From NCBI GenBank assembly GCA_963744145.1, contig CAVUSO010000001.1, positions 2,304,001-2,368,000 of the forward strand: 64,000 nt of DNA, read 5' to 3'. The translations under genes and the position numbers were made by a program. The first letter of the stretch is position 1, and each line of letters begins with the position of its first letter. This document shows, piece after piece, positions 19,911 through 53,489 of this stretch. The DNA is from an uncultured cyanobacterium (GTDB taxonomy: Bacteria; Cyanobacteriota; Cyanobacteriia; Cyanobacteriales; CAWUOF01). The notes beneath the pieces were generated by a model. That model was not told where the DNA came from. It saw nothing but the letters and a program-made list of their open reading frames with translations, and searched no databases.

Positions 19911-22900
19911 ATCCTTCCTCACTGCGACAGAGATCAATAAAAGCTTTTAGTATCTTAGACCAGGGTGTACCATCGGAGCGCATTCCCGCAACACAGGTAG
20001 CATCTCCTACTCCAATTAAAACACATCGAGCGCGGCTAAATGCAACACAAAGCCGATTGGGTAATGCGGTAAACCCAAGACGCTGTTCAATTGATGAGTT
20101 CTGATTACTACGAACTGTGGAGAGATATACTATATCATACTCGCGTCCCTGAAAAGCATCAACAGTACCAACACGCACCCGCTCTTGGAGATGCTCAGGT
20201 AAACCGTTACGCTGATCTGCGATCGCATCTTTAAGTGCTTCTTCTTGAGCAGAGTAAAATGCAATCACTCCCACCATTCCAGTAGGTTGATTTGGATCAA
20301 AATTAGGATATTTTTCCTCAATTCGTGGTAAAATACGGCGCAGTTCAGCCATAATCCGAATAACTTCAGCAGGTCTTTCCCAGCTCGATTTACCAGACCG
20401 CTTTTCACCTCCTTGATGATCTGGGATATTCAACCAAACTACAGGTTTTTGATTGTACTCTCCTGTGTAATTCGGTCGTGCTTCTGGTTTGACAAAATTG
20501 GAATTAAGGGGGCTTTCCGGATAAAAATAATCACTAATAAATTTACCAATTGTTGGGTGCATCCGAAACTGATCTGTCAATTGAGCAGTCCGTTCAATCC
20601 CATCTATTGCTGTTTGTTGAGGCAGAGATGCCCAGAGTCTTTCAAATAAACTCTTTCCATAAACTTCTCTTAGCTTTTCATCACCTTCTTTGGCTAAACT
20701 CTGCGCTATTTCTCGCTCCAAAACATGGGGAAGTTGTTTGTGATCACCAACTAAGATAATTCTTCGTCCTTTCACCATTGGTATTAGTAAATCTAGTGGG
20801 TTTGCTCTTGCTGCTTCATCTACTATCACTAGGGTAAATGTTCGATCATTCATTCCTAGGTGCTTCGAGTCTGCTTGTCCACAACTAGCAGCTTGAACTG
20901 GTGAATATTTCCGAATAACTTCTCTAACGTGATTGGGGGATTCCTCTAAATCTCGCACAAATAGTTCAAGGGTATCTTGTACCCCTTCCTCACTTTTAAC
21001 GCGAACTGCTTCGACTTCCTCAATAGCAGCTAGGAGACATCGTTCTATTTTCTCATCAGAAACATCCTGTTCAGCAATGGCTTGGGTAATAGGAATCTCT
21101 AGCAATTGTTGGCGAATACCAATACAGGCATTTTTCAAAGAAAGCCAAGGTTCTAGATTAACTGTATTTTCTTCACTCCACAATATCGCGACTTCCACAG
21201 CTTCAATAATATCATGAGAAAGATGATCTAAATAAGGATCTAAAAAACGTCGCAGCCTTCGAGCTTGCCGATTTCCATCCTCTTTGAAACTTTCTGCTGT
21301 AATACATTGCTGATTGAGTCGTCGCTCCAGTTCATCTCGATCATCAGCATCTTCAATTATTGGCTGATTTTGCGCTTGAATGACTGGAACAGTACCTGCA
21401 AGATGATCGATTTCAGCAACTCGTTGAGCAGATAAAAAGGTTTCTGCTACATTACGAAAATCTAAAAGGATTTCACGAGTTCCTTCACGTCCACCTGCTG
21501 AGGTGCGCCAATGGGAAAGATAACCTTTGAGTTTGTCAATTAACACCAGAGTTGGAGATGGTTCGGTAGAGAGGTGAGAACGAACTACTTGAATAACTTG
21601 GTTTCTCCAAGTTTGAATGGTTTCAGCACCTCGATCTTCCCCTTTTTTGCCTCCTAATCTATCTACCGGAAGTCCACCAATACTCATACTAGCGATCGCA
21701 TTATCTACTGCTTCATGCTGAAGACTTGTTACCAAAACAGTTTCCAACACTTCACCTGGATCTCGTCCATCATTAAGCATCATCAGCAGTGCTTGAATTA
21801 CTCTGGTCTTTCCCGTTCCCGGAGGTCCCTGAATCAGCGCAATATCCGGTGTACTCAGTGCAATTCTCAGCGCTTTTTCCTGAGCAGGTGTTGGTCCATT
21901 TTCACCAAAAATCTTGCGTGCAGTTTTAGTTAGTAGTTGCTTTTTCCGGGGAGGAATTACTCTATCAAAGGATTTACCTTCTAGAATTAAACCCAAATAA
22001 GGAAGACCAGAACGTGCCGATTCTAAAGTAGTTAGTGCTTTTTCACGTCTTTGAATTCGAGATTTTTCCAGACCCATTGAGGGATAGATTTCCCCATCTT
22101 TGTTAGGATATTCCTGCTGACCTTCCCAAACCAAAGTTAGGCAATGGGTATTAAGATTGTATCCTGATACTGATCCTTCAGGCATACCGATGTTATCTTG
22201 AATGGTTACAGGGATACCATCTCCTGAAATATGTTTAAGCCAAGGTGTTATGTTGGCAGATGGTTTTAAATAAAAATTTAGTAAATTTCTATTACCATCG
22301 TTAGAAATAAGACTTTGTATTCCGTTGTATGGTAAAGGAGATAGCAGCCCAAAACGCTCTTCTAAAATTCGATTTTCTTCAGCATTATACTCTTTCCAAC
22401 TCGCAATCCAACTATTATTTTCCTGAACAGCTTTGCTCAATGCTGAAATAGCCGCCGATCGCATTGTGCTAGCAACGGTTTGATCACAAAACTCTAATGA
22501 TTCCCGCATCAAATAAATAGAGCGATCGCTCAAGTTACGCCCTAGTCGCTTCATAGCTTCTGCTACAATCTGCCCGTCTTTTTGGGGAACTAAATTGAGT
22601 GACCAAGACTTTCCTAACACAGAAAATCCCTTCTGAAAATCTGGATCTTTGACCCCTGATGTTACAAACCAATAACCTAAGTGATTAAGTATAAATTCTT
22701 CTTTTAATTGGCGTTTAGCATCTTGAAAGTTTTTGACTTTACGCCAATTCTTACTAACAACTGTTTCAATAAACTCGTCAGTGATAGCAACTTCTAATTG
22801 AACTGGGATTTCGGAATTAGGTACATTAAAAGAACGCCCATCAATTTCAATTGTATTGTCTGTCGCTTTCATAATGCAACCTACAATTAAAGTGTGCCCT

Positions 22901-23124
22901 GATTGCAGTTCTGCCAACAGTATTTTAGCATCAGGTGAATCTGGTTTAATTTCAATGATTGTCTCATCATCCCTACCGTTAGGAATTTGAAAGCATAGAG
23001 TGTTTTCATCAATTCGCTTTAATTCAACAATCTTATCCTCCCAATTATCATTATTTCTTAGGTTGAAGCTATGTAAAAAATGCCCACCTACTTGTTTGCC
23101 AAATTTGAGGTCAAATAATTTCAT
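19897..23124 (-). CDS. SF1B Upf1/DNA2-like helicase (CnuH-like)
   Basis: QGPPGTGKT, VDEAARA, GDHKQLP, QFRMHP, TVDAFQGRE, VAFSRAR. Confidence 0.92.
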   Translation of the reverse strand: MKLFDLKFGKQVGGHFLHSFNLRNNDNWEDKIVELKRIDENTLCFQIPNGRDDETIIEIKPDSPDAKILLAELQSGHTLIVGCIMKATDNTIEIDGRSFNVPNSEIPVQLEVAITDEFIETVVSKNWRKVKNFQDAKRQLKEEFILNHLGYWFVTSGVKDPDFQKGFSVLGKSWSLNLVPQKDGQIVAEAMKRLGRNLSDRSIYLMRESLEFCDQTVASTMRSAAISALSKAVQENNSWIASWKEYNAEENRILEERFGLLSPLPYNGIQSLISNDGNRNLLNFYLKPSANITPWLKHISGDGIPVTIQDNIGMPEGSVSGYNLNTHCLTLVWEGQQEYPNKDGEIYPSMGLEKSRIQRREKALTTLESARSGLPYLGLILEGKSFDRVIPPRKKQLLTKTARKIFGENGPTPAQEKALRIALSTPDIALIQGPPGTGKTRVIQALLMMLNDGRDPGEVLETVLVTSLQHEAVDNAIASMSIGGLPVDRLGGKKGEDRGAETIQTWRNQVIQVVRSHLSTEPSPTLVLIDKLKGYLSHWRTSAGGREGTREILLDFRNVAETFLSAQRVAEIDHLAGTVPVIQAQNQPIIEDADDRDELERRLNQQCITAESFKEDGNRQARRLRRFLDPYLDHLSHDIIEAVEVAILWSEENTVNLEPWLSLKNACIGIRQQLLEIPITQAIAEQDVSDEKIERCLLAAIEEVEAVRVKSEEGVQDTLELFVRDLEESPNHVREVIRKYSPVQAASCGQADSKHLGMNDRTFTLVIVDEAARANPLDLLIPMVKGRRIILVGDHKQLPHVLEREIAQSLAKEGDEKLREVYGKSLFERLWASLPQQTAIDGIERTAQLTDQFRMHPTIGKFISDYFYPESPLNSNFVKPEARPNYTGEYNQKPVVWLNIPDHQGGEKRSGKSSWERPAEVIRIMAELRRILPRIEEKYPNFDPNQPTGMVGVIAFYSAQEEALKDAIADQRNGLPEHLQERVRVGTVDAFQGREYDIVYLSTVRSNQNSSIEQRLGFTALPNRLCVAFSRARCVLIGVGDATCVAGMRSDGTPWSKILKAFIDLCRSEEGYADI

Positions 23125-25296: not shown

Positions 25297-25917
25297 CTAT
25301 GTTTTAGGTTCAATAATTTTGACTAAAATTCGCAAAAGGTCTTCTAGATCAGCAGGAACACGATAGAGATCGAGGTTTTGAGTTACTTGACGAGATTGTC
25401 GATCAAACTGACCAAATTGCCAAATATTCCCAGTTGAAATTGCACCTGGTAAGATCGGTTGTTCAGAATCTATCCATTGATCGAGGGCAATTAATTCAAT
25501 AGCTAGCTGCACAAAACCACGTTCTAGGTCTTCATTTTTGGCTTCAATTACGAGAAAAGTTTGGTGATTTTGGAGGAGATAGTCTAGGGAACCTTTGAGT
25601 TGATTACTAACAGCAATAGGATATTCGACGTTAAGAGTAGCTTGGGTATAGTGCAACAGATCAGTTAACACTGGAGCAATCAGAAATTCTCGTCTTGCTA
25701 TTTCACTGGTGAGACTAAGACGAGGTAGACTTTCTTCAATTCTAGCTTTAAGATCAGTAAGGCGATCGAGGGTGCCCATATATTTAGGCAGATTTAAGGA
25801 GCAACGTTGGAGAGAAACGTTAAAATATGCTAGAATATCTTGCGGTGCAAAGTTGAGTTTAAAGTAGTCAGCAAAAGTGTAAGACTGATCAGGTTGAATA
25901 ATCTTCGTTCTAAGCAT
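25297..25917 (-). CDS. Conserved cyanobacterial restriction-endonuclease-fold protein
   Basis: SEIARRE, GSLDY, IEAK, STGNIWQF. Confidence 0.65.
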   Translation of the reverse strand: MLRTKIIQPDQSYTFADYFKLNFAPQDILAYFNVSLQRCSLNLPKYMGTLDRLTDLKARIEESLPRLSLTSEIARREFLIAPVLTDLLHYTQATLNVEYPIAVSNQLKGSLDYLLQNHQTFLVIEAKNEDLERGFVQLAIELIALDQWIDSEQPILPGAISTGNIWQFGQFDRQSRQVTQNLDLYRVPADLEDLLRILVKIIEPKT

Positions 25918-32014: not shown

Positions 32015-32110
32015 GACAGACGAGATGTGGACAGACGAGATGTGGACAGACAAGATGTCCGTCCCACTAGAAACAATCACTCTTGTGGGACAGTCATCTT
32101 GACTGTCCTA
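32015..32110. repeat. 15-nt tandem repeat (GACAGACGAGATGTG, about 3 copies) merged with REP-like hairpins
   Basis: Visible directly; GGACAGACAAGATGTCCGTCC and GGACAGTCATCTTGACTGTCC are near-palindromes. Confidence 0.6.
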
Positions 32111-32166: not shown

Positions 32167-32469
32167 TTATAGTAGTTTCATAGCCAGCACTTGCACAACA
32201 GCACTGTGTCCCTGATGAAACAGCCCTTCATGGATTTCTCGCTCAAGTTCTACACTGTGCTTAAATTCTAGTCCTTCTAGTTCCTGCTGAATGGTTGTCA
32301 GATCCATCAGCAAATTGGCATTGGGTGGACCTCCAGTTTTGAATTCCAGTTGACGGGGAGTATATGCTTCTAGCACAAACACACCACCCGATCGCAATCC
32401 AGAAACCACTTGCCGATGGATACTAGCACGGATAGTTGGTGGTAAATGACAAAAAATCGAGACGATCGC
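32167..32469 (-). pseudogene. 3' half of a split class I SAM-dependent methyltransferase
   Basis: AIVSIFCHLPP...GLRSGGVFVLEAYTPRQL; joins in frame with 45539-45828. Confidence 0.9.
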
Positions 32470-32557
32470 TAATAATTTTTAGTTCTACCGCTAATTAAAT
32501 AAGAAGAATTTATCGAAATAGATTAAATTGATTGCCCACTGCATATTAATCAGAATG

Positions 32558-35500
32558 GTTTCAGTCCCGTTGCCAGGATTCATTATTGAGAAAGCAACTT
32601 GACAACCAAGTTGACAAAAACTTTCGCGATAACGTGTTTCAGTCCCGTCGCCGGGATTAAGTATTGAGAAAGTTTTCCTTGAATCAGCAGGGTTTTCTTT
32701 ATTGGAGCCATGTTTCAGTCCCGTCGCCGGGATTAAGTATTGAGAAAGCGTAAGTCCCATCGGGTAACATTAGTCCCTCAAGTTTCAGTCCCGTCGCCGG
32801 GATTAAGTATTGAGAAAGTAAATATTATCTAAATCTTCCTAAATATTCTTTAGTGTTTCAGTCCCGTCGCCGGGATTAAGTATTGAGAAAGCTGCATCTT
32901 TTAATCATGTTTCTAGTCTTTTAGAGTTTCAGTCCCGTCGCCGGGATTAAGTATTGAGAAAGTATCTATATAAACGTAGATGTTATAGTAGGAGATTGTT
33001 TCAGTCCCGTCGCCGGGATTAAGTATTGAGAAAGAAAAAACTAATACATCCAATAGAGCGCCGGCGCAAAGTTTCAGTCCCGTCGCCGGGATTAAGTATT
33101 GAGAAAGCAATGGGAATAAGACAGTCCACACGGTCATGCTAGCTGTTTCAGTCCCGTCGCCGGGATTAAGTATTGAGAAAGCCCCAATAATGGCAATCTC
33201 GCCAATTTGGTTAGTTTCAGTCCCGTTGCCGGGATTAAGTATTGAGAAAGTTGCGGTAGTGAGTGACATACATATCGTTCCAGGTTCTTGTTTCAGTCCC
33301 GTTGCCGGGATTAAGTATTGAGAAAGATCATCATTTTGCAAGTTGCGGTAGTGAGTGACAGTTTCAGTCCCGTTGCCGGGATTAAGTATTGAGAAAGCAA
33401 CCTTCAGCGAAACTTTTAAAACCCCAACCTTTCGGGTTTCAGTCCCGTTGCCGGGATTAAGTATTGAGAAAGGTGTAGCCGGGACTGGGATGGGCTCTGG
33501 CGTTGTGTTTCAGTCCCGTTGCCGGGATTAAGTATTGAGAAAGAGATAATTCCATTTGATTCTCCTTTCTTGGTGAGTTTGTTTCAGTCCCGTTGCCGGG
33601 ATTAAGTATTGAGAAAGAATTGATTTTGCTAAATATTCCAAAGAAACATCAAAGTTTCAGTCCCGTTGCCGGGATTAAGTATTGAGAAAGAGCAGGTAGC
33701 CGATATTCTTATCCCTGCTCTAGAAAAGTTTCAGTCCCGTTGCCGGGATTAAGTATTGAGAAAGCAGCTTTTTTGGGAGAAACTTTAGGGATAGGGATTT
33801 GTTTCAGTCCCGTTGCCGGGATTAAGTATTGAGAAAGTTTCTCTCCCAGAGAAATCGAGATTAAATTGTGTTCAGAGTTTCAGTCCCGTTGCCGGGATTA
33901 AGTATTGAGAAAGTTTGGGACAAATACGTTTCGAGTCTAAATTTGTCTCAGTTTCAGTCCCGTTGCCGGGATTAAGTATTGAGAAAGATTTGCGTATCCC
34001 GCAATAGTTGAAATTGTGCCTGAAGTTGGTTTCAGTCCCGTTGCCGGGATTAAGTATTGAGAAAGTCGATTCGAGATTTCTTAATCTGATAAATAAAATG
34101 TTTCAGTCCCGTTGCCGGGATTAAGTATTGAGAAAGAAGTTGATTTTGAATAGTTCAGTTTAGGAGGTTCAAGTTTCAGTCCCGTTGCCGGGATTAAGTA
34201 TTGAGAAAGCTATGAGAGTCGCATCAAAATCCCAAAAGTCCTATCAACCGTTTCAGTCCCGTTGCCGGGATTAAGTATTGAGAAAGCCCACAGTTTTATA
34301 TAGGTGAACTATCGGAGAAAAGTTTCAGTCCCGTTGCCGGGATTAAGTATTGAGAAAGATATCAGGTTGTCAATCATCCCGGATGATGTAGAAATGAGTT
34401 TCAGTCCCGTTGCCGGGATTAAGTATTGAGAAAGTAGATGAAATATTTGATGAGTCGGATTTCTCCCCCATGTTTCAGTCCCGTTGCCGGGATTAAGTAT
34501 TGAGAAAGAAGTCGGAGCAGCATTAAATTTCAGAGTAGTTTTGGTTTCAGTCCCGTTGCCGGGATTAAGTATTGAGAAAGGAGGATTAAATTATGAATCT
34601 TCCTTCAATGGAAGTCTTGTTTCAGTCCCGTTGCCGGGATTAAGTATTGAGAAAGCCGGGAGTACGCCTTCAGACCAGAGAACCGTCTTTACCCTGTTTC
34701 AGTCCCGTTGCCGGGATTAAGTATTGAGAAAGACCCAAAATAACATTACACAACAGGACAAAACAATGACGTTTCAGTCCCGTTGCCGGGATTAAGTATT
34801 GAGAAAGCTGCCCAATCAGCAATATTGACTATCACTGGTCTGGCGATGTTTCAGTCCCGTTGCCGGGATTAAGTATTGAGAAAGACCTACCTATGAAATT
34901 AGCACCCTTGCGTCGGGTGCGAGTTTCAGTCCCGTTGCCGGGATTAAGTATTGAGAAAGGGGGAAGTTATGTCCGACATCCCAGGGGGTGGCTTAGTTTC
35001 AGTCCCGTTGCCGGGATTAAGTATTGAGAAAGTCCCCTAAAGAAATATTTTCCCCAAAATCGGATAGTTTCAGTCCCGTTGCCGGGATTAAGTATTGAGA
35101 AAGCAGTAAAGCTGTCCAGACTGGACAGTTTTTTCTCGTTTCAGTCCCGTTGCCGGGATTAAGTATTGAGAAAGAAGTCTTGACCGGACAACAACCATGC
35201 TCCTTGATAGTTTCAGTCCCGTTGCCGGGATTAAGTATTGAGAAAGTTGGAGCTGAACTTTAAAGATTGACTTGGCAGTGATTGTTTCAGTCCCGTTGCC
35301 GGGATTAAGTATTGAGAAAGCGGGGGAAACCATCGGGTCAATTTGTGAATGAATGTTTCAGTCCCGTTGCCGGGATTAAGTATTGAGAAAGCGATGAGAT
35401 TTTCGATGAGTCTGACTTCAGTCCGAGTTTCAGTCCCGTTGCCGGGATTAAGTATTGAGAAAGTCTGCTAATGCCTTGGCTTTTAAAGATTTAATTTCTT

Positions 35501-38500
35501 CTGAAGTTTCAGTCCCGTTGCCGGGATTAAGTATTGAGAAAGCAATATTAGCAGACAAAATTTGCCCCGGACAAATGTTTCAGTCCCGTTGCCGGGATTA
35601 AGTATTGAGAAAGGTTTGGTCGTTTTGCTGTTTCTACATACCAACAGGAGTTTCAGTCCCGTTGCCGGGATTAAGTATTGAGAAAGTCCTTGGTTTGCAG
35701 TCCCCATTCCGGTGTCGGTGTTGTTTCAGTCCCGTTGCCGGGATTAAGTATTGAGAAAGCAATCTTGCTCCTCAGAATTTCTTCTGGGATTTTGATGTTT
35801 CAGTCCCGTTGCCGGGATTAAGTATTGAGAAAGCCGTTAGTTGTTGACGCGAATGAATGTTTGGATTATTGTTTCAGTCCCGTTGCCGGGATTAAGTATT
35901 GAGAAAGCTTAGAGTCAAATCCGGCGTGGGAAAATGTGTAGTTTCAGTCCCGTTGCCGGGATTAAGTATTGAGAAAGTGCCATAATGGACAAGGACTTAT
36001 ATAGATAAGTCCCGTTTCAGTCCCGTTGCCGGGATTAAGTATTGAGAAAGCCTCATTAAATAAAAAGGATTTAAAGAACGAGGGTCGTTTCAGTCCCGTT
36101 GCCGGGATTAAGTATTGAGAAAGCAAGGTAATTCCGGAAATTCCTTTACCCCAAGGATGTTTCAGTCCCGTTGCCGGGATTAAGTATTGAGAAAGCAGCA
36201 GGAGCAACAGCTAAGGCAATTTCATCATAATCAATAGTTTCAGTCCCGTTGCCGGGATTAAGTATTGAGAAAGTGGGTATAATTACTGGAATGGCAGTTC
36301 GTGGAATTTTCAGTTTCAGTCCCGTTGCCGGGATTAAGTATTGAGAAAGTATTCTACATATTAAAGTAGAAGAACCTATACCTATACCCATGTTTCAGTC
36401 CCGTTGCCGGGATTAAGTATTGAGAAAGCGGTCAATATTAATCACACGGGAATTACCATCAATAGTTTCAGTCCCGTTGCCGGGATTAAGTATTGAGAAA
36501 GTGTTGCTGATTCAGAATCAGCAAAACGAGGTTCTTTAAGTTTCAGTCCCGTTGCCGGGATTAAGTATTGAGAAAGAATTTTAATCAGCACAATAACCCC
36601 CAAGTAAAAATGTTTCAGTCCCGTTGCCGGGATTAAGTATTGAGAAAGAGGTCAGCAAGGAACTCGATGAGTTCCTGGTGAAGTTGAATGCTTCTTGTTT
36701 CAGTCCCGTTGCCGGGATTAAGTATTGAGAAAGCTCTCTGGCTAGGGATTAGCTATCGAGCATACTTAGGTTTCAGTCCCGTTGCCGGGATTAAGTATTG
36801 AGAAAGTTGTTTTCAAGTCGTCTTTGTTCTTAGAGCCAAAAACTACAGTTTCAGTCCCGTTGCCGGGATTAAGTATTGAGAAAGAACCAGAAAATTTAAC
36901 CCATCAAGAGCGTAATTAATGTTTCAGTCCCGTTGCCGGGATTAAGTATTGAGAAAGGCGACAAATGTTGGGTTAAATATAGCAGCAGGATAAGTTTCAG
37001 TCCCGTTGCCGGGATTAAGTATTGAGAAAGCTGATCTATGGGTGTATATATTAGATTGTTATGGGTTGTTTCAGTCCCGTTGCCGGGATTAAGTATTGAG
37101 AAAGTTGGTTGAGAATGAATTTTTAAAGGAACAAGTACAGAAATGTTTCAGTCCCGTTGCCGGGATTAAGTATTGAGAAAGCGGTGGACATAACAAGCGG
37201 ATGTATTGGCTAAGTCATTGTTTCAGTCCCGTTGCCGGGATTAAGTATTGAGAAAGTCTGTCGAAAAAGACAAGCACTTCGAGAAATCGAAGTTTCAGTC
37301 CCGTTGCCGGGATTAAGTATTGAGAAAGCCTAAAGTTAATATTATAGAAAGAATCTATAAAACATGTTTCAGTCCCGTTGCCGGGATTAAGTATTGAGAA
37401 AGACGATAAGTAATTGTACAGAATTATTTACAATAATAACATAATGTGTTAAGGTTGAAGAGTTGAAATTTAAATTTAACTAAAAAAATGATATTTCTAC
37501 GAGAAATTAATCCCCTTTCCGTTAAATTACTAAAGCGAATTTATCATCAAAGCCGACATCACCAGGTGCGTCAAAGAGCTCATTGCCTAATCTTAGCAAA
37601 CGACGGTGTAAAAGTCCCAGAGTTGATGAAAATTTTCAACGTCAGCTCTAAAACAATTTATAATTGGTTTGGGCGATGGGAATCATCTAGTATGGTTGGA
37701 TTATATAATCAATCAGGTAGAGGCTCTAAACCAAAATTTAATTCTGAACAAGAAAACCAAATTAAAGAGTGGACAAAATCCGAACCAAGACAATTAAAAC
37801 AAGTGGTAGAAAAAGCCAAAGAAAAATGGGGAATTGAGGCCAGTACAAAAACAATTAAAAGAATTTTGCAAAAATTTAATATGAGCTGGCATCGGATGCG
37901 TAAAGTGGTAGGAGGAGAACCTGTAGCTACCGTATATCAAGAAAAAAAGCGACAACTAGCAGAATATGAACGATTGGATAAGTTAGGTGAAATTGACCTA
38001 TATTACTTAGATGAATCCGGATTCTCTTTAATTCCTTCTGTGCCATACGCTTGGCAAGATATTGGCGAATATTTTGGGATTCCTAGTCAGCAAAGTAAGC
38101 GTTTAAATGTGTTAGGAATCATGAATAAACGGAATAAATTTGAAGCTTATGTTTCTGAAAAAAGTATCACTGGTGATGTAGTTGCGGCTTGTATTGATAC
38201 TTTCTTTCCTACCGTTGATAAACCCGTGGTAATTGTTACAGATCAAGCATCTATTCATACAGGCAATGCGATTTTTGAAAAACTTGAAGAATGGCAAGAG
38301 CGAAAAATTACTATTTTTGAGTTGCCTACTTATTCTCCCCATCTGAACCTAATTGAAATTTTGTGGAGGTTTATTAAGTATGAATGGATTCCGATAGAAG
38401 CTTATAAAGATTGGCCAACTTTCGTTGCAGCCGTTGAAAAGATTTTGAGAGAATTTGGAGAAAAGTATGTAATTAATTTTGTCTGACTACTTAATAAGGT

Positions 38501-41500
38501 CTCATTATCCTATCTCGTAGGATAGTTTCAGTCCCGTTGCCGGGATTAAGTATTGAGAAAGTACTAATCTAATCTCCAATTCTAATCAATATACACTTAG
38601 TTTCAGTCCCGTTGCCGGGATTAAGTATTGAGAAAGTGGATCATCCAGAGACTGATACTTTTGAGAAAACTCTGAAATGTTTCAGTCCCGTTGCCGGGAT
38701 TAAGTATTGAGAAAGTCGGAGTAAATCCGGAGTATACGCCAATGCTGCTCTAGCAAGGTTTCAGTCCCGTTGCCGGGATTAAGTATTGAGAAAGCGGATT
38801 CCCAATGGCAATTATTGAATAGGTAGCGATCGCATGTTTCAGTCCCGTTGCCGGGATTAAGTATTGAGAAAGTCTGCCATATCAATATCATTTAATTGTT
38901 GATTTAATGCGTTTCAGTCCCGTTGCCGGGATTAAGTATTGAGAAAGCTGACTAAAACAACATAAATTTAATCTGCTGTGAGTTTCAGTCCCGTTGCCGG
39001 GATTAAGTATTGAGAAAGCTTGAATTGTCCGATTATGGCAATTCTTATTATTTGCATGTTTCAGTCCCGTTGCCGGGATTAAGTATTGAGAAAGAGGAAT
39101 TAGATAAGGAATTACGCCAATTACGATCAGGTTTCAGTCCCGTTGCCGGGATTAAGTATTGAGAAAGGTCCTTAATAATTTGGTGAGTGCCCATCAACGA
39201 CCCGGTTTCAGTCCCGTTGCCGGGATTAAGTATTGAGAAAGATACTTAATAAGTTTTTCTTATTAAGTAAAAATGCTTAGGTTTCAGTCCCGTTGCCGGG
39301 ATTAAGTATTGAGAAAGGACCAGACCGAATATTACAAAGTTCGGCAAAACTAGCCCAGGTTTCAGTCCCGTTGCCGGGATTAAGTATTGAGAAAGAAATA
39401 TATTGGCTCAAATTATGGAACTACAGAGAGCATGTTTCAGTCCCGTTGCCGGGATTAAGTATTGAGAAAGCCCAATGGGGGTCATCGACGACAGTTGGGG
39501 CAATCGTTTCAGTCCCGTTGCCGGGATTAAGTATTGAGAAAGAACCTAAGAATTTTAATATCTCTCCTTTTACTTCTTTATAATGTTTCAGTCCCGTTGC
39601 CGGGATTAAGTATTGAGAAAGTGGGGAATCTGACCCCCAACTTTTCCAATAATTTCGTTTCAGTCCCGTTGCCGGGATTAAGTATTGAGAAAGAAGTGAA
39701 CTTTAATACTGCTAACGACCCTAGCGCATTGATTGTTTCAGTCCCGTTGCCGGGATTAAGTATTGAGAAAGCTGGGGTGAATAGGTTTAGGAGCGATTGC
39801 AATCATTTGTTTCAGTCCCGTTGCCGGGATTAAGTATTGAGAAAGTTTATCGCTCTAACTTGGGGCAAAGACAGGAGCAGGTTTCAGTCCCGTTGCCGGG
39901 ATTAAGTATTGAGAAAGCTACCTGTAGATCCAACAAAATTAAATTCTTACCTGTTTCAGTCCCGTTGCCGGGATTAAGTATTGAGAAAGAAATTATGGTC
40001 GAATTATTAACGTTTCAGAATTGGTTTCAGTCCCGTTGCCGGGATTAAGTATTGAGAAAGCTAGCGAGGGGTCAGTAACTTTAGCTAGGGTGATTGGGTT
40101 GTTTCAGTCCCGTTGCCGGGATTAAGTATTGAGAAAAGGACTGCATCATTGGACGCTCTGGGGTCTTTTTGCGTCGTTTCAGTCCCGTTGCCGGGATTAA
40201 GTATTGAGAAAGTAGGTTTTCCTCTTTTACTAGGAGTAGAATTTTTCTTGTTTCAGTCCCGTTGCCGGGATTAAGTATTGAGAAAGTGTAATAAAGTTGG
40301 CCAGATTGATTCCAACCTCTAGTCGCGTTTCAGTCCCGTTGCCGGGATTAAGTATTGAGAAAGTTTAAAGGTAATGCTCGCCCCATCCCCCTCGATTGTT
40401 TCAGTCCCGTTGCCGGGATTAAGTATTGAGAAAGCCACTTGAAATAAAAAAATACCCTCCCATATCAAGTTTCAGTCCCGTTGCCGGGATTAAGTATTGA
40501 GAAAGCTAACGTTAATTCATCATTAGTTTGAGTCGGAATAAGTTTCAGTCCCGTTGCCGGGATTAAGTATTGAGAAAGCAACATTTGATTTATCCACTTA
40601 GGGTATCCCTCCTGGAAGTTTCAGTCCCGTTGCCGGGATTAAGTATTGAGAAAGTTTCTTTTATTTCTCCCTTTGGTTGTAATTTCTGAACCAGGTTTCA
40701 GTCCCGTTGCCGGGATTAAGTATTGAGAAAGGTTTCACTTACGAATTCCTAGAAGGAAATGAAAAAGTTTCAGTCCCGTTGCCGGGATTAAGTATTGAGA
40801 AAGAGCTGAGTTTTTCTTATCCAGCACTTTAGCTTTTAGGTTTCAGTCCCGTTGCCGGGATTAAGTATTGAGAAAGTTGCCAAAATTCTAGATGATCTAA
40901 TCTCATAAAATCAGTTTCAGTCCCGTTGCCGGGATTAAGTATTGAGAAAGTATTTCAAAAATCTCGTTCTGATCAGGGTCTACGTGTTTCAGTCCCGTTG
41001 CCGGGATTAAGTATTGAGAAAGTTTATAGTCCACGGGTTAATTAGACCTATTGGGACTATTGTTTTAAGTTTCAGTCCCGTTGCCGGGATTAAGTATTGA
41101 GAAAGACTTGAGGGGCATTCCCATCACTGTATAAATTTTGCCAGTTTCAGTCCCGTTGCCGGGATTAAGTATTGAGAAAGTTAGCTTGAGCTAAATCAGC
41201 TTGACTGCCTCCACCAGGTTTCAGTCCCGTTGCCGGGATTAAGTATTGAGAAAGTGATGTCGTACTAAATAGTCGTTACATCCCGAAGAAGTTTCAGTCC
41301 CGTTGCCGGGATTAAGTATTGAGAAAGTAGTCCCATCTCCTTGTAAAGAGATTTGAGAGATATTTTGTAAGTTTCAGTCCCGTTGCCGGGATTAAGTATT
41401 GAGAAAGTTTGGGAAGTGGTCTTTGATGACAAATCTGTCGTCGTTTCAGTCCCGTTGCCGGGATTAAGTATTGAGAAAGTAGAATCATCAATACAACCAC

Positions 41501-43312
41501 TAACCGTATAGGGAAGTTTCAGTCCCGTTGCCGGGATTAAGTATTGAGAAAGCCTAGCCAAATAAAACAACAGAGGAAAAACATGAAGATAGTTTCAGTC
41601 CCGTTGCCGGGATTAAGTATTGAGAAAGAAGTACTGTTTATAAATTAGACAACACAAAATTAGTGTAGTTTCAGTCCCGTTGCCGGGATTAAGTATTGAG
41701 AAAGCAGCAGGTGTATCCTGTCCCGAGGATGCTTACGAAGTTTCAGTCCCGTTGCCGGGATTAAGTATTGAGAAAGCTGAGAGCGAGTTCTTTTTGGGCA
41801 TAGTCATCCCAGTAGATTTGTTTCAGTCCCGTTGCCGGGATTAAGTATTGAGAAAGCAATAGGGCTGGGGATAATTTGCTTGAGTGTCCATCCCCTAAGT
41901 TTCAGTCCCGTTGCCGGGATTAAGTATTGAGAAAGCTTTTGCGATCGCAGTAGCTAATCCAGCAGCACGTTTCAGTCCCGTTGCCGGGATTAAGTATTGA
42001 GAAAGTTGCTCCATCAGGAACATTACCCCCTGATTGGTATTATTTCCGGTTTCAGTCCCGTTGCCGGGATTAAGTATTGAGAAAGATAGAAGTTTGACTC
42101 GCAAATTTAGGGGTAAAATAAATGTTTCAGTCCCGTTGCCGGGATTAAGTATTGAGAAAGTTGGAAATAATGTCAATCAATTAATATTATTCAATAAGTT
42201 TCAGTCCCGTTGCCGGGATTAAGTATTGAGAAAGATATTACCAGTACAATCACTGGGGTCCAGGCTACCGCAGGTTTCAGTCCCGTTGCCGGGATTAAGT
42301 ATTGAGAAAGCTGAACTAAGGGCTAGATGGGCGGCAGTGATCGCGGAAAAGTTTCAGTCCCGTTGCCGGGATTAAGTATTGAGAAAGTTCTCAACCAAAG
42401 ATCCTGATACAGGCGCCACCCTGAAGTTTCAGTCCCGTTGCCGGGATTAAGTATTGAGAAAGTTACCAGACTCAGACTTCCGTTGATACTCCTAATACGT
42501 TTCAGTCCCGTTGCCGGGATTAAGTATTGAGAAAGTTGTAAAACTCAACCCATTGGGTATATTGGGCATGTTGATTGCCAAAAGTTTCAGTCCCGTTGCC
42601 GGGATTAAGTATTGAGAAAGAATAAATGAGCTATTCTCGCTAGCCCAATTGCATAGACGTTTCAGTCCCGTTGCCGGGATTAAGTATTGAGAAAGAAGTA
42701 TTTTTATAGTTGACGGTGTAGCCATTTACCGTTTCAGTCCCGTTGCCGGGATTAAGTATTGAGAAAGGAGCTGTAACCCTTACGGCTCTAGCTGACAAAG
42801 ATGGCAAGTTTCAGTCCCGTTGCCGGGATTAAGTATTGAGAAAGTCGCTGATGCTAACTACAGCGGAATCAGTGGACTTAACGTTTCAGTCCCGTTGCCG
42901 GGATTAAGTATTGAGAAAGCTAATGCTTCCCTACCTACCTAATGAGACACTAATACTTCCCGTTTCAGTCCCGTTGCCGGGATTAAGTATTGAGAAAGCG
43001 GCAGCGTCTTTCCGGCGAGATTGCGTTCATTCAATCAATGTTTCAGTCCCGTTGCCGGGATTAAGTATTGAGAAAGCAGTAGTATAATCAAATTAAAATT
43101 ATGTCAATCAACAATGGTTTCAGTCCCGTTGCCGGGATTAAGTATTGAGAAAGTTGCTCTGACGTAGAACCCTTAGTCAATGGATTACAAAAATTTAAGT
43201 TTCAGTCCCGTTGCCGGGATTAAGTATTGAGAAAGCGGGTTATCACTGGACGGCTACGCACCTGATTAATTACAGGTTTCAGTCCCGTTGCCGGGATTAA
43301 GTATTGAGAAAG
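32558..43312 (-). CRISPR. Type I-D-like CRISPR array of about 130 repeats (counted by eye), 37-bp repeat CTTTCTCAATACTTAATCCCGGCAACGGGACTGAAAC; no cas genes in the window
   Basis: Identical 37-mers with unique spacers of roughly 33-48 bp. The degenerate terminal repeat at 32558 marks the trailer end. CTTTC...GGGACTGAAAC is the cyanobacterial I-D repeat type. Confidence 0.97.
37409..38491 (+). mobile_element. IS630-family element inserted in a CRISPR spacer, TA duplication; intact 332-aa transposase at 37488-38486
   Basis: Imperfect TIRs AGTAATTGTACAGAATTATTTACA and (reverse complement) AGTAGTCAGACAAAATTAATTACA. TA at 37407-8 and 38492-3. DESGF, DQASIH and YSPHLNLIEILW motifs. Confidence 0.93.
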
Positions 43313-43620
43313 AGCGTGGTCTAGAAGCGTTACTGGGACTAGCTTGAAATAGCAATTTTGGCAGGTCTCCAAAAAAACTTCATTTCAGCGATTGCCCCAA
43401 CTGAAAATTTGCTAGATTTAGACCGGGGTTAGAGCGTAGAACTATTGAATTATCAAGGTTCTAGAGATTTTGGCGGCACCCCCTGGTTTTTCAACCTCGC
43501 TTCGCCTTGCCAAAAAATCTATACAGACACTATATAACACCTTTGCAACTTTGTCACATATTTTAGCACTCAAATTTTGCAGAAAAATAATTCAGGTAAT
43601 TTCTTATGGACAATGGCGAT
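43313..43620 (-). promoter_or_regulatory. CRISPR leader
   Basis: Non-coding region adjoining the non-degenerate end of the array; resembles cyanobacterial I-D leaders (GACCTGCCAAAATTGC...). Confidence 0.7.
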
Positions 43621-43644
43621 CGGATCACCTCTAATCGCTAAATA

Positions 43645-43718
43645 ATACCAGCTTCATAAATTAGCACTACAGATAATATATATAGATCATCTGTAGTCAG
43701 AGTTGGAAGAATTGGTAT
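43645..43718. mobile_element. About 75-bp MITE derived from an IS630 like the one at 5753-6903
   Basis: Left TAATACCAGCTTCATAAATTAGCACTACAGATA resembles the IS630 left end. Right CTGTAGTCAGAGTTGGAAGAATTGGTATAA resembles 6876-6905. Confidence 0.75.
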
Positions 43719-43731
43719 AACTGGAGAAATA

Positions 43732-43760
43732 TTGACAATAAGTACATATTCGGTCATAAT
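43732..43760 (+). promoter_or_regulatory. Sigma70-type promoter of IS607 tnpA
   Basis: TTGACA-17 bp-CATAAT, ending 6 bp before ATG 43767. Confidence 0.6.
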
Positions 43761-43766
43761 ATATCT

Positions 43767-44385
43767 ATGACTAAATATGTAACGCCAAATGAAGCAGCTA
43801 ACACTCTCTTGAGTTTGTCTCAGAACCCTTAGAAGATGGGAAGTCGAGGGAAAAATCAATACCGTCAAAACACCCTGTGGTCACAGAAGGTACGACATCG
43901 AAGGGTTCATCAAAAAAGAATCAGCACCAGAAAGTGGACGCGCCACTGTTATCTATGCTCGCGTCTCTACCAGACCTCAACAAGCAGACCTTATGCGACA
44001 AATTGAGCGATTATCAACGCTCTATCCAGGCGCTGAAGTCGTTCAGGAAGTGGGAGGAGGACTTAATCTTAGGCGGAAAGGACTCATCACCCTTTTGGGA
44101 CGAGTTTTGCGTGGCGATATCGCAGTTATTGTGGTTGCCCACAAAGATCGACTCGCCCGATTCGGATTTGATCTTATCGAGTGGTTGTGTGAACAATTTG
44201 ACTGCCAAATCGTGGTTCTCAACCAAGTCAGTCTCTCTCCTCACGCCGAACTCGTTCAAGATATCATCGCAATCCTCCACAGCTTTTCAAGCCGACTTTA
44301 TTCCCTCCGCCGACTTGAAAACCAAATCAAAGAAGAGTTACAAACTGAAACCAAGGCACCAGAAAAACCCGTTAAAACAGCCTAA
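43767..44385 (+). pseudogene. tnpA: IS607-family serine recombinase TnpA (+1 frameshift near 43808)
   Basis: MTKYVTPNEAA, then in the +1 frame RTLRRWE...GHRRY...IYARVST...EVGGGLN...HKDRLARFGFD...FSSRLYS. Confidence 0.9.
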
Positions 44386-45530
44386 TAAAACTCTGAAAAT
44401 TCGGGTATATCCTGAACCTGCACTGCATCAAAAATGGAAGTCTTGGTTAGCGGCATCTCGTCACTGTTATAACCAAGCGATCGCTGCATTGAAATCAGGT
44501 AAAGAAATAACCAGTGCTTATTCACTGCGGAATTATGTGTTCAGTTTGGACTTACCTGATTGGGTAAAATCTGCCCCAGCACATCCAAAAGAGAATGCAA
44601 TTTTTGATGCTTGGGATGCAAGTAAACAAGCTCAGTCGCAAGGAGGTGAAGCAAGTTTCAGAAATTGTAGACAACCAGTCCAGGCGATTAAGTTTCATCA
44701 AGTTAACTTTAACGGGAAAACTTGGTTTCCTTCTCTGGTTAAAGGACTTAGTTTTCAGGCTAGCGAACCATTACAAAAAACTGAATTTGCGACTCAATTA
44801 GTCAGAGATAGAAAGCGGTGGTTTGCTTGTATTCCCATCCAGGCTGAAATTAATGAACCAAAACAATTAGACCAAGTAATTGCTTTAGATCCGGGGGTAA
44901 GAACTTTTCTAACTGGATATGATGGTGATTCATACTTAGAGTTTGGTAAGGCAGACATTGGACGCATTCAAAGATTGTGTTCTCACCTTGACCAACTCAT
45001 AGGACGCGCCTCGAAATCTGGTCGAAAACAAAAACGTCGGATGTACCAAGCCGCGAATCGTTTACGCATTAGAATTCGCAATTTGGTAGATGAATGTCAT
45101 AAACAAGTTGCTAATTACCTGACAACTCAGTACAAGGTGATTTTTCTGCCTAAGTTTGAAACTTCACAAATGGTAATTAAGTCCGGACGTCCGACTTCAT
45201 ACTAAAACAGCGAGACAGATGCTTACTTGGGCGCATTACCGATTTAAGTGTCATCTCAAACAAGTCGCTCAACAGCGTGGTGTTGTCGTCATTGATGTGA
45301 ATGAATCTTACACCTCAAAAACTTGTACTAGCTGCGGATACCAGCACCACCAATTAGGCGGGTCGAAAACGTTTAAATGCCCCCATTGTGGTCATATTCA
45401 TGATCGCGACTGGGGGGGCGCTCGGAACATTATGATCCGGGCTTTGAGGGACGGCTCCTTTGCTTTGGCGATCACGAGCGAAAGCATTGCTGTCGCGTAT
45501 GCTCTATTTGTCCAGAGTTGTACAGCGTAA
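44315..45530 (+). pseudogene. tnpB: IS607 TnpB of pro-Fanzor type (+1 frameshift near 45190; start uncertain)
   Basis: KIRVYP, ALDPGVRTF, IFLPKFET (shifted Glu), MLTWAHYRFK, ESYTSKTCTSCG, CPHCG, DRDWGGARNI. Confidence 0.88.
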
Positions 45531-45538
45531 TACCGTCA

Positions 45539-45828
45539 GCATCCCAAGAATTGGGTTGAATGACAAATTCAGCCAGATCTGCCACAATCGTTTCTATCTC
45601 CACAGAACGCTCTGCTGCTAGTTTGCGAGCTTTCTCCAAGCCTATAGAAGAACCATCGACAGCCGTAACCTGACATCCTTGCTGTGCTAGATATACAGCA
45701 TTCCTACCTTCTCCTTCGGCTAGAGAAAGAACATGACCTTTGGGAATCTGTTGGATGACTTGGACTAAAAAGTCGTTGGGATGCTTACCATAGGCATACT
45801 CAGTCTGGCTATATCGTTCATTCCACAT
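45539..45828 (-). pseudogene. 5' half of the split SAM-dependent methyltransferase
   Basis: MWNERY...PNDFL...LAEGEGRNAVYLA...WDA; homology ends at the IS607 right end. Confidence 0.9.
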
Positions 45829-50674: not shown

Positions 50675-51044
50675 TAAACGATTTTCTTTTATTGAACGAA
50701 GGAATCAAGCAGGAGAGGCTAATGTTTTTCCTTGTGTACCCATAATTTTAAGCTACCGAGATTGTGTTTTAGAAGTTGTTGGTTTGTTAGATACGGGAGC
50801 AAGTCTTAATATTTTACCGGATCATATTGGTTTAGCGTTAGGAGCAGTTTGGGAGGAGCAAACGCTTTCAATTCCGTTAGCAGGTAATCTTGCGCCAGTG
50901 GAAGCAAGGGGTTTAGCTGTTATGGGACAAATTAGCAATTTTCCACCTGTTCGTTTAGCTTTTGCTTGGGCGAAGTCTAACGATCCGCCTATTATTTTAT
51001 TAGGGGAGGTTTGGGTTTCGCTTAAACTGTGCCATGTGCGGTAG
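50664..51044 (+). CDS. Retropepsin-like aspartyl protease family protein (3' end likely truncated)
   Basis: LLDTGAS...IILLG; the 3' end overlaps the opposite-strand NACHT-derived sequence. Confidence 0.6.
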   Translation: MRNAKRFSFIERRNQAGEANVFPCVPIILSYRDCVLEVVGLLDTGASLNILPDHIGLALGAVWEEQTLSIPLAGNLAPVEARGLAVMGQISNFPPVRLAFAWAKSNDPPIILLGEVWVSLKLCHVR

Positions 51045-52474
51045 AAGTCGGGGTAGGGGAGGTTTTGGGCGCAGTGACGAATAACTATGTACGCAGCATT
51101 ATCAAAATCAAAAGATTCTATATGGTTTGTTTCTTTATTTATCGTCCAAAAACTATTTAAGATAAACAATATCCAGAATAATATATGATTTTTGTATATT
51201 GACTGTAGGCGTATCGTCGATTCGGCTACGTTTACTAAACAATCTTTAGGGCTTTTTGGGGACAAGCAAGATAGACAGTATTGCATAAAGCTTGTAATTT
51301 TATTGTTTATTGATGTCCTGAAAAGGTAGAAAAATCGGGCTGAAAAAATCCCTTTGCTAAGTATATAGCTTAAATCATCAAGCCAAAGCCAAGTCTGATT
51401 CGGCTTGGATGATTGATAAAATTGATAAAAAGATATAAAATCGACATCATTGACAATTTCGTAAAGGTCATCGCCCATCTCTGCATGGACTAAATGATAT
51501 GGCAAATTTACCACATAATGTTCATCTTCATTGAGTGATTCCCAGACACCTGAAAATTCTTTAACCTTTTTATCGTTGAGTTTCTGAGCTAATAGTGAAC
51601 TAGCAAGCGAAGAGGAAATTTGTTTGTAAAAATCACTACACCCATCATCAAAATTCACCAACTTCTCAATAAACTCCTCCTTCTCCTCATCTTCAACATC
51701 CCCACGCCCCAACCACAACAAAATCACCTGCTTCCACTGCGGTTCAAAAATCCGATATTCCTTCCCCGCCACCGGAAAATTAACATGATTTCGAGGTAAA
51801 AAATAATCCCAATCATCCACCGCCAAGGCAGCAAAATACTCCTGAAACGAGGCATGATAAAACACGCAAATCGCTTCTGGAAACCGTTCCACCCGATTCA
51901 ACCACCCCAACCTCATCACCGCCTGAAAAATCGGGCGATTTCCCAAAACCTTCACCACCCAACTTTCGGCTACAATAATTAGGCGATCGCCTCCGAGTTT
52001 CCATTTTTTGACATAATCTGAGGTCAGATTCAGCAAATCACCACTATGACAACAATCGAGAAACACAACTTGTTGGGAAATCGGACTATTTAGCATCAGT
52101 TCCCGCAACTGCTCTAGAGGAAAACCCCATTGTGATTTGCTCGGATTAGCATCACTAGCTGCAAGGTAAATTCGACCATCAGTCCCTGGGATTCCATGTC
52201 CTGCAAAGAAGAATAACGCTACATCGGGCAGGGTTTGGGTCTTTGGTTGAAATAGGTGATGAATAGCTTGGGACAGTTCTTCAGTGCTGACAACCTTTTG
52301 ATTTTCCTGAGAAGAAAGCAATCTATCATCAACAGACCAAGCAAAATCAGGATTTCCTTGGGAACGATTAAGCAAGGTGGCGATGTTCGTGGCATCGTAA
52401 TAGGGAGCATAGAGATGGTTATTTGTGAGGAAAGGATAACGATTGATCCCAACTACTAAGGCTTGTCGTTTCAT
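50822..52474 (-). pseudogene. Caspase (peptidase C14) domain fused to internal fragments of a NACHT/HEAT protein
   Basis: ALVVGINRY, FAGHG, LDCCHSG, then FYHASFQEYFAA...EPQWKQVILLWLG; no Walker A/B. Confidence 0.7.
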
Positions 52475-52525
52475 CTGCCTTACACCAACTATGATTAATC
52501 TTGGTTGAAATTTTACCCTAATTAC

Positions 52526-53116
52526 TTATGATCTCTCACGCCCCAAAATTTCATCAACACTAACCACCAACTCACTAAAAGCAAGGGGTGAAATAGTGTC
52601 ACCGCGTCGAAAACGTTGGACATTTGTATAACCATTAGCAGTGGGGTCGCGATCAACCTCTAGTACGGGCGTATTGCAATACGCCCCTTCTAAATTGACA
52701 ATCCAAAGTTCAATGATTCCCGCTCTACTATAGATAATTGCTTTTTTACGGTCCCTCCTAATTGTGGGATCTGCTACCTCAATAAGTAAAAAAATATCTT
52801 CAGGTTCAGGATGTTTATCTTCATACCCATATTGGTCTGGTTTTGCCACCACTAAATCAGGCTGTACATCCGAATAACTATCTATATGAACAGGATTCTG
52901 TACTGGTAAAGAAATCATCTTTCTGGTAACAAGTTCAGAAAAAATGGTTACTAAACGATTTACACAACCTGCATGACGAATCCCAATCGGTGCCATGTAA
53001 ACAATATCCCCATCAATTAACTCAACCCGATCATCTGGTATAAGTATCCCAACCTCACCCAGCTTGTAATATTCCTCTACAGTAAATTTCTTTTGTTCTG
53101 TTGCTACTACAGACAT
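52526..53116 (-). CDS. Uma2-family endonuclease carrying an in-frame palindromic repeat (GAYCNTPV)
   Basis: RVELIDG, QPDL, LLIEVAD, YSRAGI.ELWIVNL. Confidence 0.85.
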   Translation of the reverse strand: MSVVATEQKKFTVEEYYKLGEVGILIPDDRVELIDGDIVYMAPIGIRHAGCVNRLVTIFSELVTRKMISLPVQNPVHIDSYSDVQPDLVVAKPDQYGYEDKHPEPEDIFLLIEVADPTIRRDRKKAIIYSRAGIIELWIVNLEGAYCNTPVLEVDRDPTANGYTNVQRFRRGDTISPLAFSELVVSVDEILGRERS

Positions 53117-53489
53117 AATTTTTACCATCCTAAAAGATGCAATTTGCGATCGCATCCCGATCTAGTTGAAGAAACCAACATCAGTAGATAGTGGGACGGC
53201 GCGATCTCTCTACATCAGCCGTCAGTGTGGTAGTAAAAGCGATCGCGAGTGGAACAACAAAGCTATGCTAACTTGATCCTGTACCGCTGCCAAAATACAG
53301 CTTGACCCATTGAATGTATTCTGATCGATAAAATGCTAAAATTGTGATAATTACGTTTTTAGTTTTAGCTTTATAAAACCATGTTACTAGAAGATTACTT
53401 TAATTTTTTGGCTCCTGATGACATTCGGCTCAAAGGGACAAGAATCGGGATTGAAACAATTTTGTTTGACCCTAAACAGGACAAACTTC

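Follow-up and report, generated by a model that had tools for sequence, protein, structure and literature searches.

A 13-kb insert linking an orphan CRISPR array to an IS607-family element in a cyanobacterial methyltransferase gene, and its possible origin by IS607 recombination

In a 64-kb stretch of the genome of an uncultured cyanobacterium (C1:2304001-2368000, hereafter the window; the genome comprises 7.7 Mb in four contigs and has 39% G+C), a gene for an S-adenosylmethionine (SAM)-dependent methyltransferase is split by a 13,071-bp insert. The insert holds an orphan type I-D CRISPR array (array B below), the leader of this array, and a canonical element of the IS607 insertion-sequence family, arranged as gene-GC-[11,146-bp CRISPR segment]-GC-[IS607]-GC-gene. 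The dinucleotide GC stands at all three junctions (32468-32469, 43616-43617, and 45539-45540), the insert stops on the right exactly where the right end (RE) of the IS607 group stops, the left end (LE) of the element is internal, a related genome retains the empty site, and the same genome carries sister arrays and a cas operon. We consider it reasonably probable that a single IS607-mediated event moved the 1.9-kb element together with the 11.1 kb of CRISPR DNA adjoining its left end, the two variants considered below for the left partner of the exchange being taken jointly.

The most economical history is that IS607 recombination brought in the array, its leader, and IS607; the sequence in which this happened and what served as the left partner are inferred. 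What is described here is a single old event involving an element that now looks disabled, and it is not proof of a new class of mobile elements.

Junctions of the insert and ends of the IS607 element

The 5' half of the methyltransferase gene (residues 1-96) lies on the minus strand at 45541..45828, matches Pfam Methyltransf_25 and TehB, and is 84% identical to its counterpart in L055, a Leptolyngbyaceae metagenome-assembled genome record with an intact copy of the gene, found in a scan of genome contigs. The 3' half (residues 98-196 and the stop codon) lies on the same strand at 32167..32467 and aligns by BLASTP with residues 98-194 of the L055 protein, with 79/97 identical residues. Joining the halves by reference in a script (minus-strand 45828-45539 followed by 32467-32167) yields 591 nt, i.e., 196 codons and a stop without internal stops, as an earlier note on this DNA had stated. 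The rejoined frame is collinear with three intact orthologues: 161 of 195 residues are identical to the 195-aa product of L055, and the orthologues L014 and L015, which are 68% and 64% identical to the N-terminal half, read across the break point. The two halves match a single gene, occupying adjoining residue ranges of the L055 protein (1-96 and 98-194) with neither overlap nor gap. The genomes compared include none of the host's own genus, and the single one from its family has no copy of this gene.

The gene order cydA, cydB, methyltransferase, and a regulator of about 900 aa (a cyclic-nucleotide (cNMP)-binding/AAA+/4Fe-4S (Fer4) protein) is common to L055 and the window. In this syntenic genome the empty site, which had been predicted to exist in relatives, reads GGGAT-GC-GATCGCC in gene orientation and contains one GC only. 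In the window, GC is found at the outer left junction (32468..32469), placed by the sequence and the L055 empty site, and again at the right junction between the IS607 RE and the methyltransferase gene (45539..45540); no longer duplication is present, in line with the earlier description of both junctions. The 13-kb block is thus a precise insertion with a demonstrable empty site, the gene halves abutting at residues 96/98. A joint skipping 32468-45540, i.e., an empty-site allele, was not seen in two sets of short-read contigs, X1 and X2. A tandem repeat (32015-32058, 15 nt x 2.9 copies) lies between the methyltransferase stop and the next gene.

A sequence-similarity search of 401 genomes of the host's order, used for IS607 copies and for the left flank of the array, gave some IS607 match in 107 of them, including four near-full-length copies (77-78% nucleotide identity) and four partial ones (73-84%). 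Eight loci from other genomes and 23 from a metagenome scan make up the 31 related IS607 loci compared here. The RE of all relatives having one reads ...GCGTAA(C/T)ACCGTCA and is followed by divergence; the equivalent position in the window is 45538, followed by GC, and an nhmmer profile built from 15 REs matches the window at 45429-45540 (E 6e-28). On the left side, homology of the relatives starts with GATCG(G/C)NNNNCCTCTAATC, which corresponds to window position 43618 and is preceded by the GC at 43616..43617, where the leader flank meets the canonical LE inside the insert; this homology does not extend to 32468. The canonical element accordingly spans 43618..45538 on the plus strand (1,921 bp), its LE beginning GATCGGATCACCTCTAATC and its RE ending GCGTAATACCGTCA.

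Among non-duplicate elements, that of the window being counted, GC is the dinucleotide ahead of the LE in 14/19 cases (CC in three, AT in two) and that behind the RE in 13/16 (GG in three), although some metagenome and genome rows in these counts may represent one insertion. By this comparison GC is the crossover dinucleotide of the cyanobacterial IS607 group. The same 2-bp core flanks the element itself at 43616-43617 and 45539-45540 without target-site duplication, so that the IS607 mode of insertion invoked earlier agrees both with the group counts and with the report on the Helicobacter pylori element (PMC6188088), according to which all insertions occurred at GG, GG was present at the termini, and no duplication arose, fitting a 2-bp exchange.

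Subterminal repeats of the kind found in the family are present as pairs of TGGACAA-like motifs 10 nt apart, at 43722/43732 on the plus strand and at 45508/45518 on the minus strand, and are presumably bound by TnpA. The heptamer TAATACC, found at both 43643 and 45528, was considered as a feature of the IS607 ends and rejected, as it is the inverted-repeat tip of an unrelated miniature inverted-repeat transposable element (MITE). A copy of this 78-bp palindromic MITE sits inside the LE at 43643..43720, between the terminus and the TGGACAA-like pair, with tips TAATACCAATT...AATTGGTATTA; it is absent from L030 and the other relatives, and more than 20 copies are present in the genome, of which 14 were aligned. 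It accounts for the greater length of the window element, since intact relatives measure about 1,838 bp.

The first gene, tnpA (43767..44385, plus strand), encodes a serine recombinase with an N-terminal MerR-like helix-turn-helix (HTH) followed by the catalytic Resolvase domain (Pfam E 8e-11), and tnpB lies downstream of it, the gene organization expected of an IS607-family element. A tblastn search with the intact TnpA of L026 recovered tnpA in two frames, residues 1-14 and 16-199, with 88% identity over 184 aa, including the segment VCLRTLRRWE. The frameshift lies at 43808-43811, where the window has CTT and 7/7 relatives have GG, and it takes the start of the HTH out of frame; a compound change of this kind is unlikely to be a read error. 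The second gene, tnpB (44360..45530, plus strand, start approximate), has Pfam matches to OrfB_IS605, HTH_OrfB_IS605, and the Cas12f1-like TNB, and was likewise recovered by tblastn in two frames, with 79-82% identity. Its stop at 45530 lies 8 bp before the GC of the right junction, exactly as first noted. The assembly contains a 1-nt frameshift in tnpB at 45190, and an X1 contig (depth 4.7) has one base fewer at this position, which restores the frame; hence this break is probably an assembly error or a polymorphism. No Rfam family reached threshold in the window, and none was found at E<=1 in 44800-45700.

The 7.7-Mb genome contains a single full IS607 copy and one 40-nt RE relic, and thus gives no sign of current mobility. 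The relic (C1:4118904-4118943) is 87.5% identical to the RE, ends in ...ACCGTCA-GC, and has no tnpB beside it; therefore, this genome has received at least one further insertion of the IS607 lineage. Elsewhere the genome encodes four distant homologues of TnpA (40-48% identity), and the LE profile matches about 15 further places on C1 at E-values from 1e-7 to 1e-3 (e.g., 1873791-1873857, 3812946-3813001, and 6261418-6261471), which may be ends of diverged or non-autonomous IS607-family elements. With a broken tnpA, a MITE in its LE, and a single genome copy, the element is probably immobile now, and the 13-kb block would therefore be fixed in place.

Array B, its leader, and the sister arrays

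Array B occupies 32558..43312 and consists of 130 repeats of 37 nt with 129 spacer slots. All 130 occurrences were found at three or fewer mismatches within this interval, where shuffled sequences are expected to yield none. The trailer-most repeat carries three mismatches, the next eight share one common variant, another 120 do not differ from one another, and a terminal change is seen in one. Since the degenerate and variant repeats are at the left end, the trailer is on the left, the leader on the right, and the CRISPR RNA (crRNA) strand is the minus strand. Spacer slot 66 is interrupted by an IS630-family insertion (37403..38524, plus strand, 1,122 bp) with an open reading frame (ORF) at 37488-38486 encoding a 332-aa protein with DDE_3 and HTH domains; partial copies of this element occur at C1:7174965-7175431 (99.8%) and C1:6277574-6277872 (93%). 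In one X1 contig, 34811 is connected to 40539 via 29 other nucleotides, which probably reflects either cross-mapping of a sister array (A or C, 90% likeness) or a shorter variant of the array.

The genome contains three arrays with near-identical repeats: A with 212 repeats, B with 130, and C with 163. Array C (C1:4811439-4823631) is located directly downstream of a complete type I-D operon comprising cas3', cas10d/csc3, csc2, csc1, cas6, cas4, cas1d, and cas2. Array A, in common with array B, has no cas neighbours. In the window, none of the 34 ORFs scanned (0/34) matched a cas family at E<=1e-8; hence array B is classified as an orphan, in keeping with the earlier account of a cas-less array of about 130 repeats. 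The expectation that type I-D cas genes would be found elsewhere in the genome was likewise confirmed, beside an array with near-identical repeats and a homologous leader. Thus array B matches type I-D in both repeat and leader while lacking adjacent cas genes. The repeats of arrays B and C differ at 2/37 positions, and the hairpin and the 3' tail are alike in A, B, and C. Array A (C1:860258-877175) is flanked by the end of a histidine-kinase-like gene and by LarC/TsaC/HetZ-related genes, and its trailer repeat is cut halfway through, adjoining ...CTGATCGG.

The leader of array B and its leader-distal flank cover 43313..43615 on the minus strand and include a promoter-like site (43557-43529) that points into the array. 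The leader is 88% identical to that of array A over 273 nt and 85% identical to that of array C over 187 nt. The homology between leaders A and B extends to ATGGACAATG[G/A]C, i.e., exactly to the GC at 43616-43617, past which array A continues into unrelated sequence and array B into the IS607 LE. Because leader homology stops where IS607 homology starts, IS607 is joined to a genuine CRISPR flank via an ordinary insertion junction. An exact TGGACAA, native to the leader-distal flank, lies at 43607-43613, 2 nt from the GC of IS607; it is ancestral, being found also upstream of array A (C1 near 859960), and may have attracted the IS607 insertion.

No collinear spacers common to arrays A, B, and C were found in a test of ancestry via spacer order. 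Pairs of spacers overlapping the same protospacer over 16-32 nt were observed between B and C (five pairs), A and C (two), and A and B (one), often in opposite orientation; this holds for 4/5 of the B-C pairs, e.g., B_15/C_12, which overlap over 32 nt. The B-C overlaps fit independent or primed acquisition from the same invaders. An exact-pattern search of viral contigs with 2/129 array B spacers gave no matches, and the spacers of all three arrays had no match in the rest of the genome at E<=1e-6.

It is plausible that array B is still used in trans by the type I-D Cas proteins of the array C locus, because the host has a complete I-D cas operon next to a sister array and because the repeats of array B keep the hairpin, the promoter-like site in its leader points inward, and its spacers overlap those of array C. 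The last three features also suggest that array B went on acquiring spacers under the same conditions as array C.

Proposed history of the insert and its rivals

A simple IS607 insertion is excluded, because the other half of the gene lies 11.1 kb beyond the LE. In the history that we favour, the first step would have been an IS607 insertion into a GC some 300 bp upstream of array B's leader. TnpA would then have joined the GC at the RE to a GC beyond the trailer of the array, instead of the GC at its own LE, to give a 13-kb circle, and this circle would have integrated at a GC inside the methyltransferase gene. In a variant of the second step that requires canonical reactions only, two IS607 copies would have bracketed the array and moved as a composite, and the left copy would later have excised, an event without a scar in this family.

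The segment on which the choice of a left partner depends is the AT-rich flank that separates the left GC from the trailer repeat (32470..32557, 88 bp), close to the 90 bp or so estimated earlier; it is not an IS607 end. The 8-mer ATCGCTAA, present at both 32465 and 43634, was considered as a shared end sequence and rejected: reaching only 4 nt beyond the GC, the match is attributed to chance, the DNA being AT-rich. No counterpart of the flank adjoins array A or array C, and in 400 other genomes the flank gave only short AT-rich matches (<=48 nt, E>=3e-4, in 28 genomes). A part of it (32499-32561, 63 nt) has an intergenic paralogue with 81% identity 1.9 Mb away, at C1:441788-441850, and this homology ends where the first repeat begins.

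Several observations weigh against a single IS607-mediated event. Firstly, within 32470-32557 no match was obtained with a profile built from eight LEs, run unfiltered at E<=100, or with the RE profile at E<=50, and there is no TGGACAA pair but one site with a single mismatch, which corresponds to background density. Secondly, a GC would stand at the outer left junction by chance with a probability of 1 in 16, and this junction rests on the assembly, as none of the X1 and X2 contigs examined bridges 32468. Thirdly, the 13-kb unit was found once: it has no second copy in its own genome, and the available flanks of related IS607 elements contained no CRISPR array at 0/8 genome loci and 0/23 metagenome loci. 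Fourthly, no donor site or empty donor joint was detected in the genome by BLAST with the 88-bp flank and the flanks of array A, which returned only the 63-nt paralogue and MITE copies. Finally, no precedent for the use of a remote GC by IS607 TnpA was found in those parts of the IS607 literature that were available.

These results also bear on the original proposal of a CRISPR-carrying IS607 transposon, which is upheld in part: its core, that IS607 recombination moved a CRISPR array, is the favoured reading, but it fails in the details needed for a new kind of transposon. The IS607 element has its own LE at 43616-43618, inside the block, and the outer left junction is devoid of LE- or RE-like sequence; hence the 13-kb block is not a transposon with two proper ends, the right outer junction having an RE and the left one no recognisable end. 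The associated view that array, leader, and IS607 arrived as one unit survives in so far as IS607 recombination is the most economical explanation, and fails in so far as the unit has no second proper end. The same array-plus-IS607 unit, for which the earlier note had proposed a search at other loci or in other genomes, is single-copy, and none of the 31 related IS607 loci has an array within the available flanks. One locus, L137, initially appeared to combine IS607 with CRISPR and was rejected, the repeats being a heptamer tandem repeat. Exact searches for a 34-nt gene-flank pattern in metagenome contigs and for a 21-nt leader block in genome contigs gave no hits in collections that may omit the host's own genome or its near kin.

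Among the alternatives, a two-step history leads to the same final structure with three GCs by the same chemistry as our preferred explanation. Here IS607 would first have entered the GC of the methyltransferase gene, and the 11.1-kb CRISPR segment would later have entered at the GC of the LE junction via TnpA, whether by integration of a circle or by two inversions in succession that involved the LE junction and the two GCs on either side of the array. We consider this improbable, since it calls for two exchanges at GCs just 11 kb apart in a 7.7-Mb genome, neither of which was next to the insertion sequence at that time, and no donor joint was seen in the genome; it is also less economical than co-mobilisation in cis.

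The absence of an IS607 end at the left junction could instead mean that the 13 kb entered by illegitimate or microhomology-mediated recombination, or by another integrase, IS607 being merely carried along at the edge. End joining, too, typically shows a 2-bp microhomology, and the region is a defence island with several insertion sequences. Nevertheless, such an entry requires the incoming fragment to have stopped fortuitously at the final base of the IS607 RE and to have used the GC core of the family at both outer junctions, which makes it quite improbable.

The ancestral TGGACAA at 43607-43613, a motif of both LE and RE that is shared with array A, might speak for a history in which the CRISPR segment came first, splitting the gene by an unspecified route, and IS607 later hit the junction GC. 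Such an order is very unlikely: the element must strike the one GC that is an older junction, exact TGGACAA is common (17 occurrences in the 64-kb window), and the mechanism of the first step is left unexplained. We give equally little credence to a self-contained 13-kb IS607 derivative with its true left end at 32468 and still able to transpose with its CRISPR cargo. The precise insertion and the GC at both outer junctions would suit it, but the canonical LE is internal (43616-43618), nothing end-like occurs at 32470-32557, the unit is single-copy, and tnpA is frameshifted. Finally, an assembly artefact at the left or internal junction hardly comes into consideration, for although the assembly has at least one probable 1-nt error (45190) and the left junction is unbridged, a misjoin would not give two gene halves fitting to the base, a 1083-nt X1 contig spans the right junction without differences, and a 151-nt X2 record covers 43602-43752, also without differences, reaching only 15 nt to the left of the internal junction.

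Neighbourhood, known systems, and significance

PADLOC hits show that the region around the insert is rich in defence genes (window positions 35-25917 and 50825-53155). Its left part includes genes for a TmtA-like protein (35-3073), PDC-M21A/B (7035-8230), PDC-M26A (15894-18242), an MkoA-like helicase (19900-23124, E 5e-102) with an adjoining kinase-like ORF, and a PD-(D/E)xK protein (25300-25917), while a caspase-like ORF and PDC-S03 are found to the right of the insert. Transposase genes of the ISAs1 family are located at 3836-5119 and 61179-61766 (one of them truncated), and another in L046 (348-1631), where it lies upstream of the I-D cas operon at array C. The right end of the window is formed by a tandem repeat of eight 21-nt copies (63826-63993).

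The element in the window resembles IS607 of H. pylori in that a Resolvase-type tnpA is followed by tnpB, terminal inverted repeats and a target duplication are both lacking, the dinucleotide is identical at the two junctions, and short repeated motifs occur near the ends. It differs in its core, which is GC and not GG, and in that the outer left junction of the insert is not an LE. As the LE starts with GATCG, each insertion creates the sequence GCGATCG at the junction, which we take to resemble the cyanobacterial HIP1 palindrome.

Another family member, ISChh1 from Campylobacter, is described as bracketing cfr(C) cassettes with two copies in the same orientation and as forming a circle with its cargo (PMC10770853). 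Both cases link an IS607-family element to the movement of neighbouring genes; both ISChh1 copies persist, whereas the window has one copy and a CRISPR cargo, the second copy being hypothesised.

In ISEcp1-type and IS91-type one-ended events and in 3' transduction by LINE-1, one genuine end is paired with a surrogate site lying further out, and flanking DNA of any length is moved. These one-ended transducers use DDE, HUH, or reverse-transcription chemistry, whereas the element in the window has a serine recombinase, and one-ended transduction by a serine transposase was not found in the available portions of the literature on IS607. It is offered here as a tentative generalization, and on the whole a doubtful one, that serine transposases of the IS607 type can pair a distant GC with their RE and thereby transduce over 10 kb of flanking DNA, usable arrays included. 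As far as can be judged from titles and the beginnings of abstracts, the literature searches returned no report of a CRISPR array moved by IS607.

Acquisition of an isolated array by horizontal gene transfer has been reported in Pseudomonas aeruginosa (PMC13142298). Array B is similar to other orphan arrays in that it is cas-less and its repeats and leader match a cas-linked array in the same genome; it is different in that both its insertion junctions can be located to the nucleotide and indicate one particular transposase.

Tn7-like CRISPR-associated transposons (CASTs) are reported to be frequent in cyanobacteria (PMC9881144; PMC11837452). In CASTs of types I-B, I-D, I-F, and V-K, a transposon and a CRISPR array travel together, as is proposed for the window; in CASTs, short arrays with Cas effectors choose the transposition targets. 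The insert described here, by contrast, has no Tn7 genes and carries an immune-type array of 130 repeats, and nothing suggests that it guides transposition.

The proximity of TnpB to an array had led the earlier note to see here the configuration from which Cas12 is thought to have arisen. This comparison is weak and is not supported. In conserved Cas12-array associations, as described in PMC10691335, the array is downstream of the nuclease gene and mimics omega RNA. Array B is upstream of tnpA, on the LE side, lies on the opposite strand and is transcribed away from the element, and its repeats are the ordinary I-D repeats of the host; hence neither an array downstream of the nuclease nor repeats related to an omega RNA scaffold, the marks of a transitional TnpB-to-Cas12 locus, are found.

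Orphan CRISPR arrays are common, and the route by which they reached their positions is rarely visible. Here the junctions, the empty site, and the ends of the transposon are resolved to single bases, and they implicate a minimal serine-recombinase insertion sequence. The locus is a natural example worth testing. Should the event represent a genuine ability of IS607 TnpA, small insertion sequences can relocate kilobases of immune memory, the mechanism based on a 2-bp core tolerates a partner that is not a transposon end, and there is a concrete route by which TnpB elements can end up next to CRISPR arrays. Transduction from a remote GC, if true, would in cyanobacteria carry complete and still functional arrays, with leader and spacers, to new loci or replicons. 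It would be a general source of orphan arrays, would allow immune memory to spread without cas genes, and would repeatedly bring TnpB elements into the vicinity of arrays.

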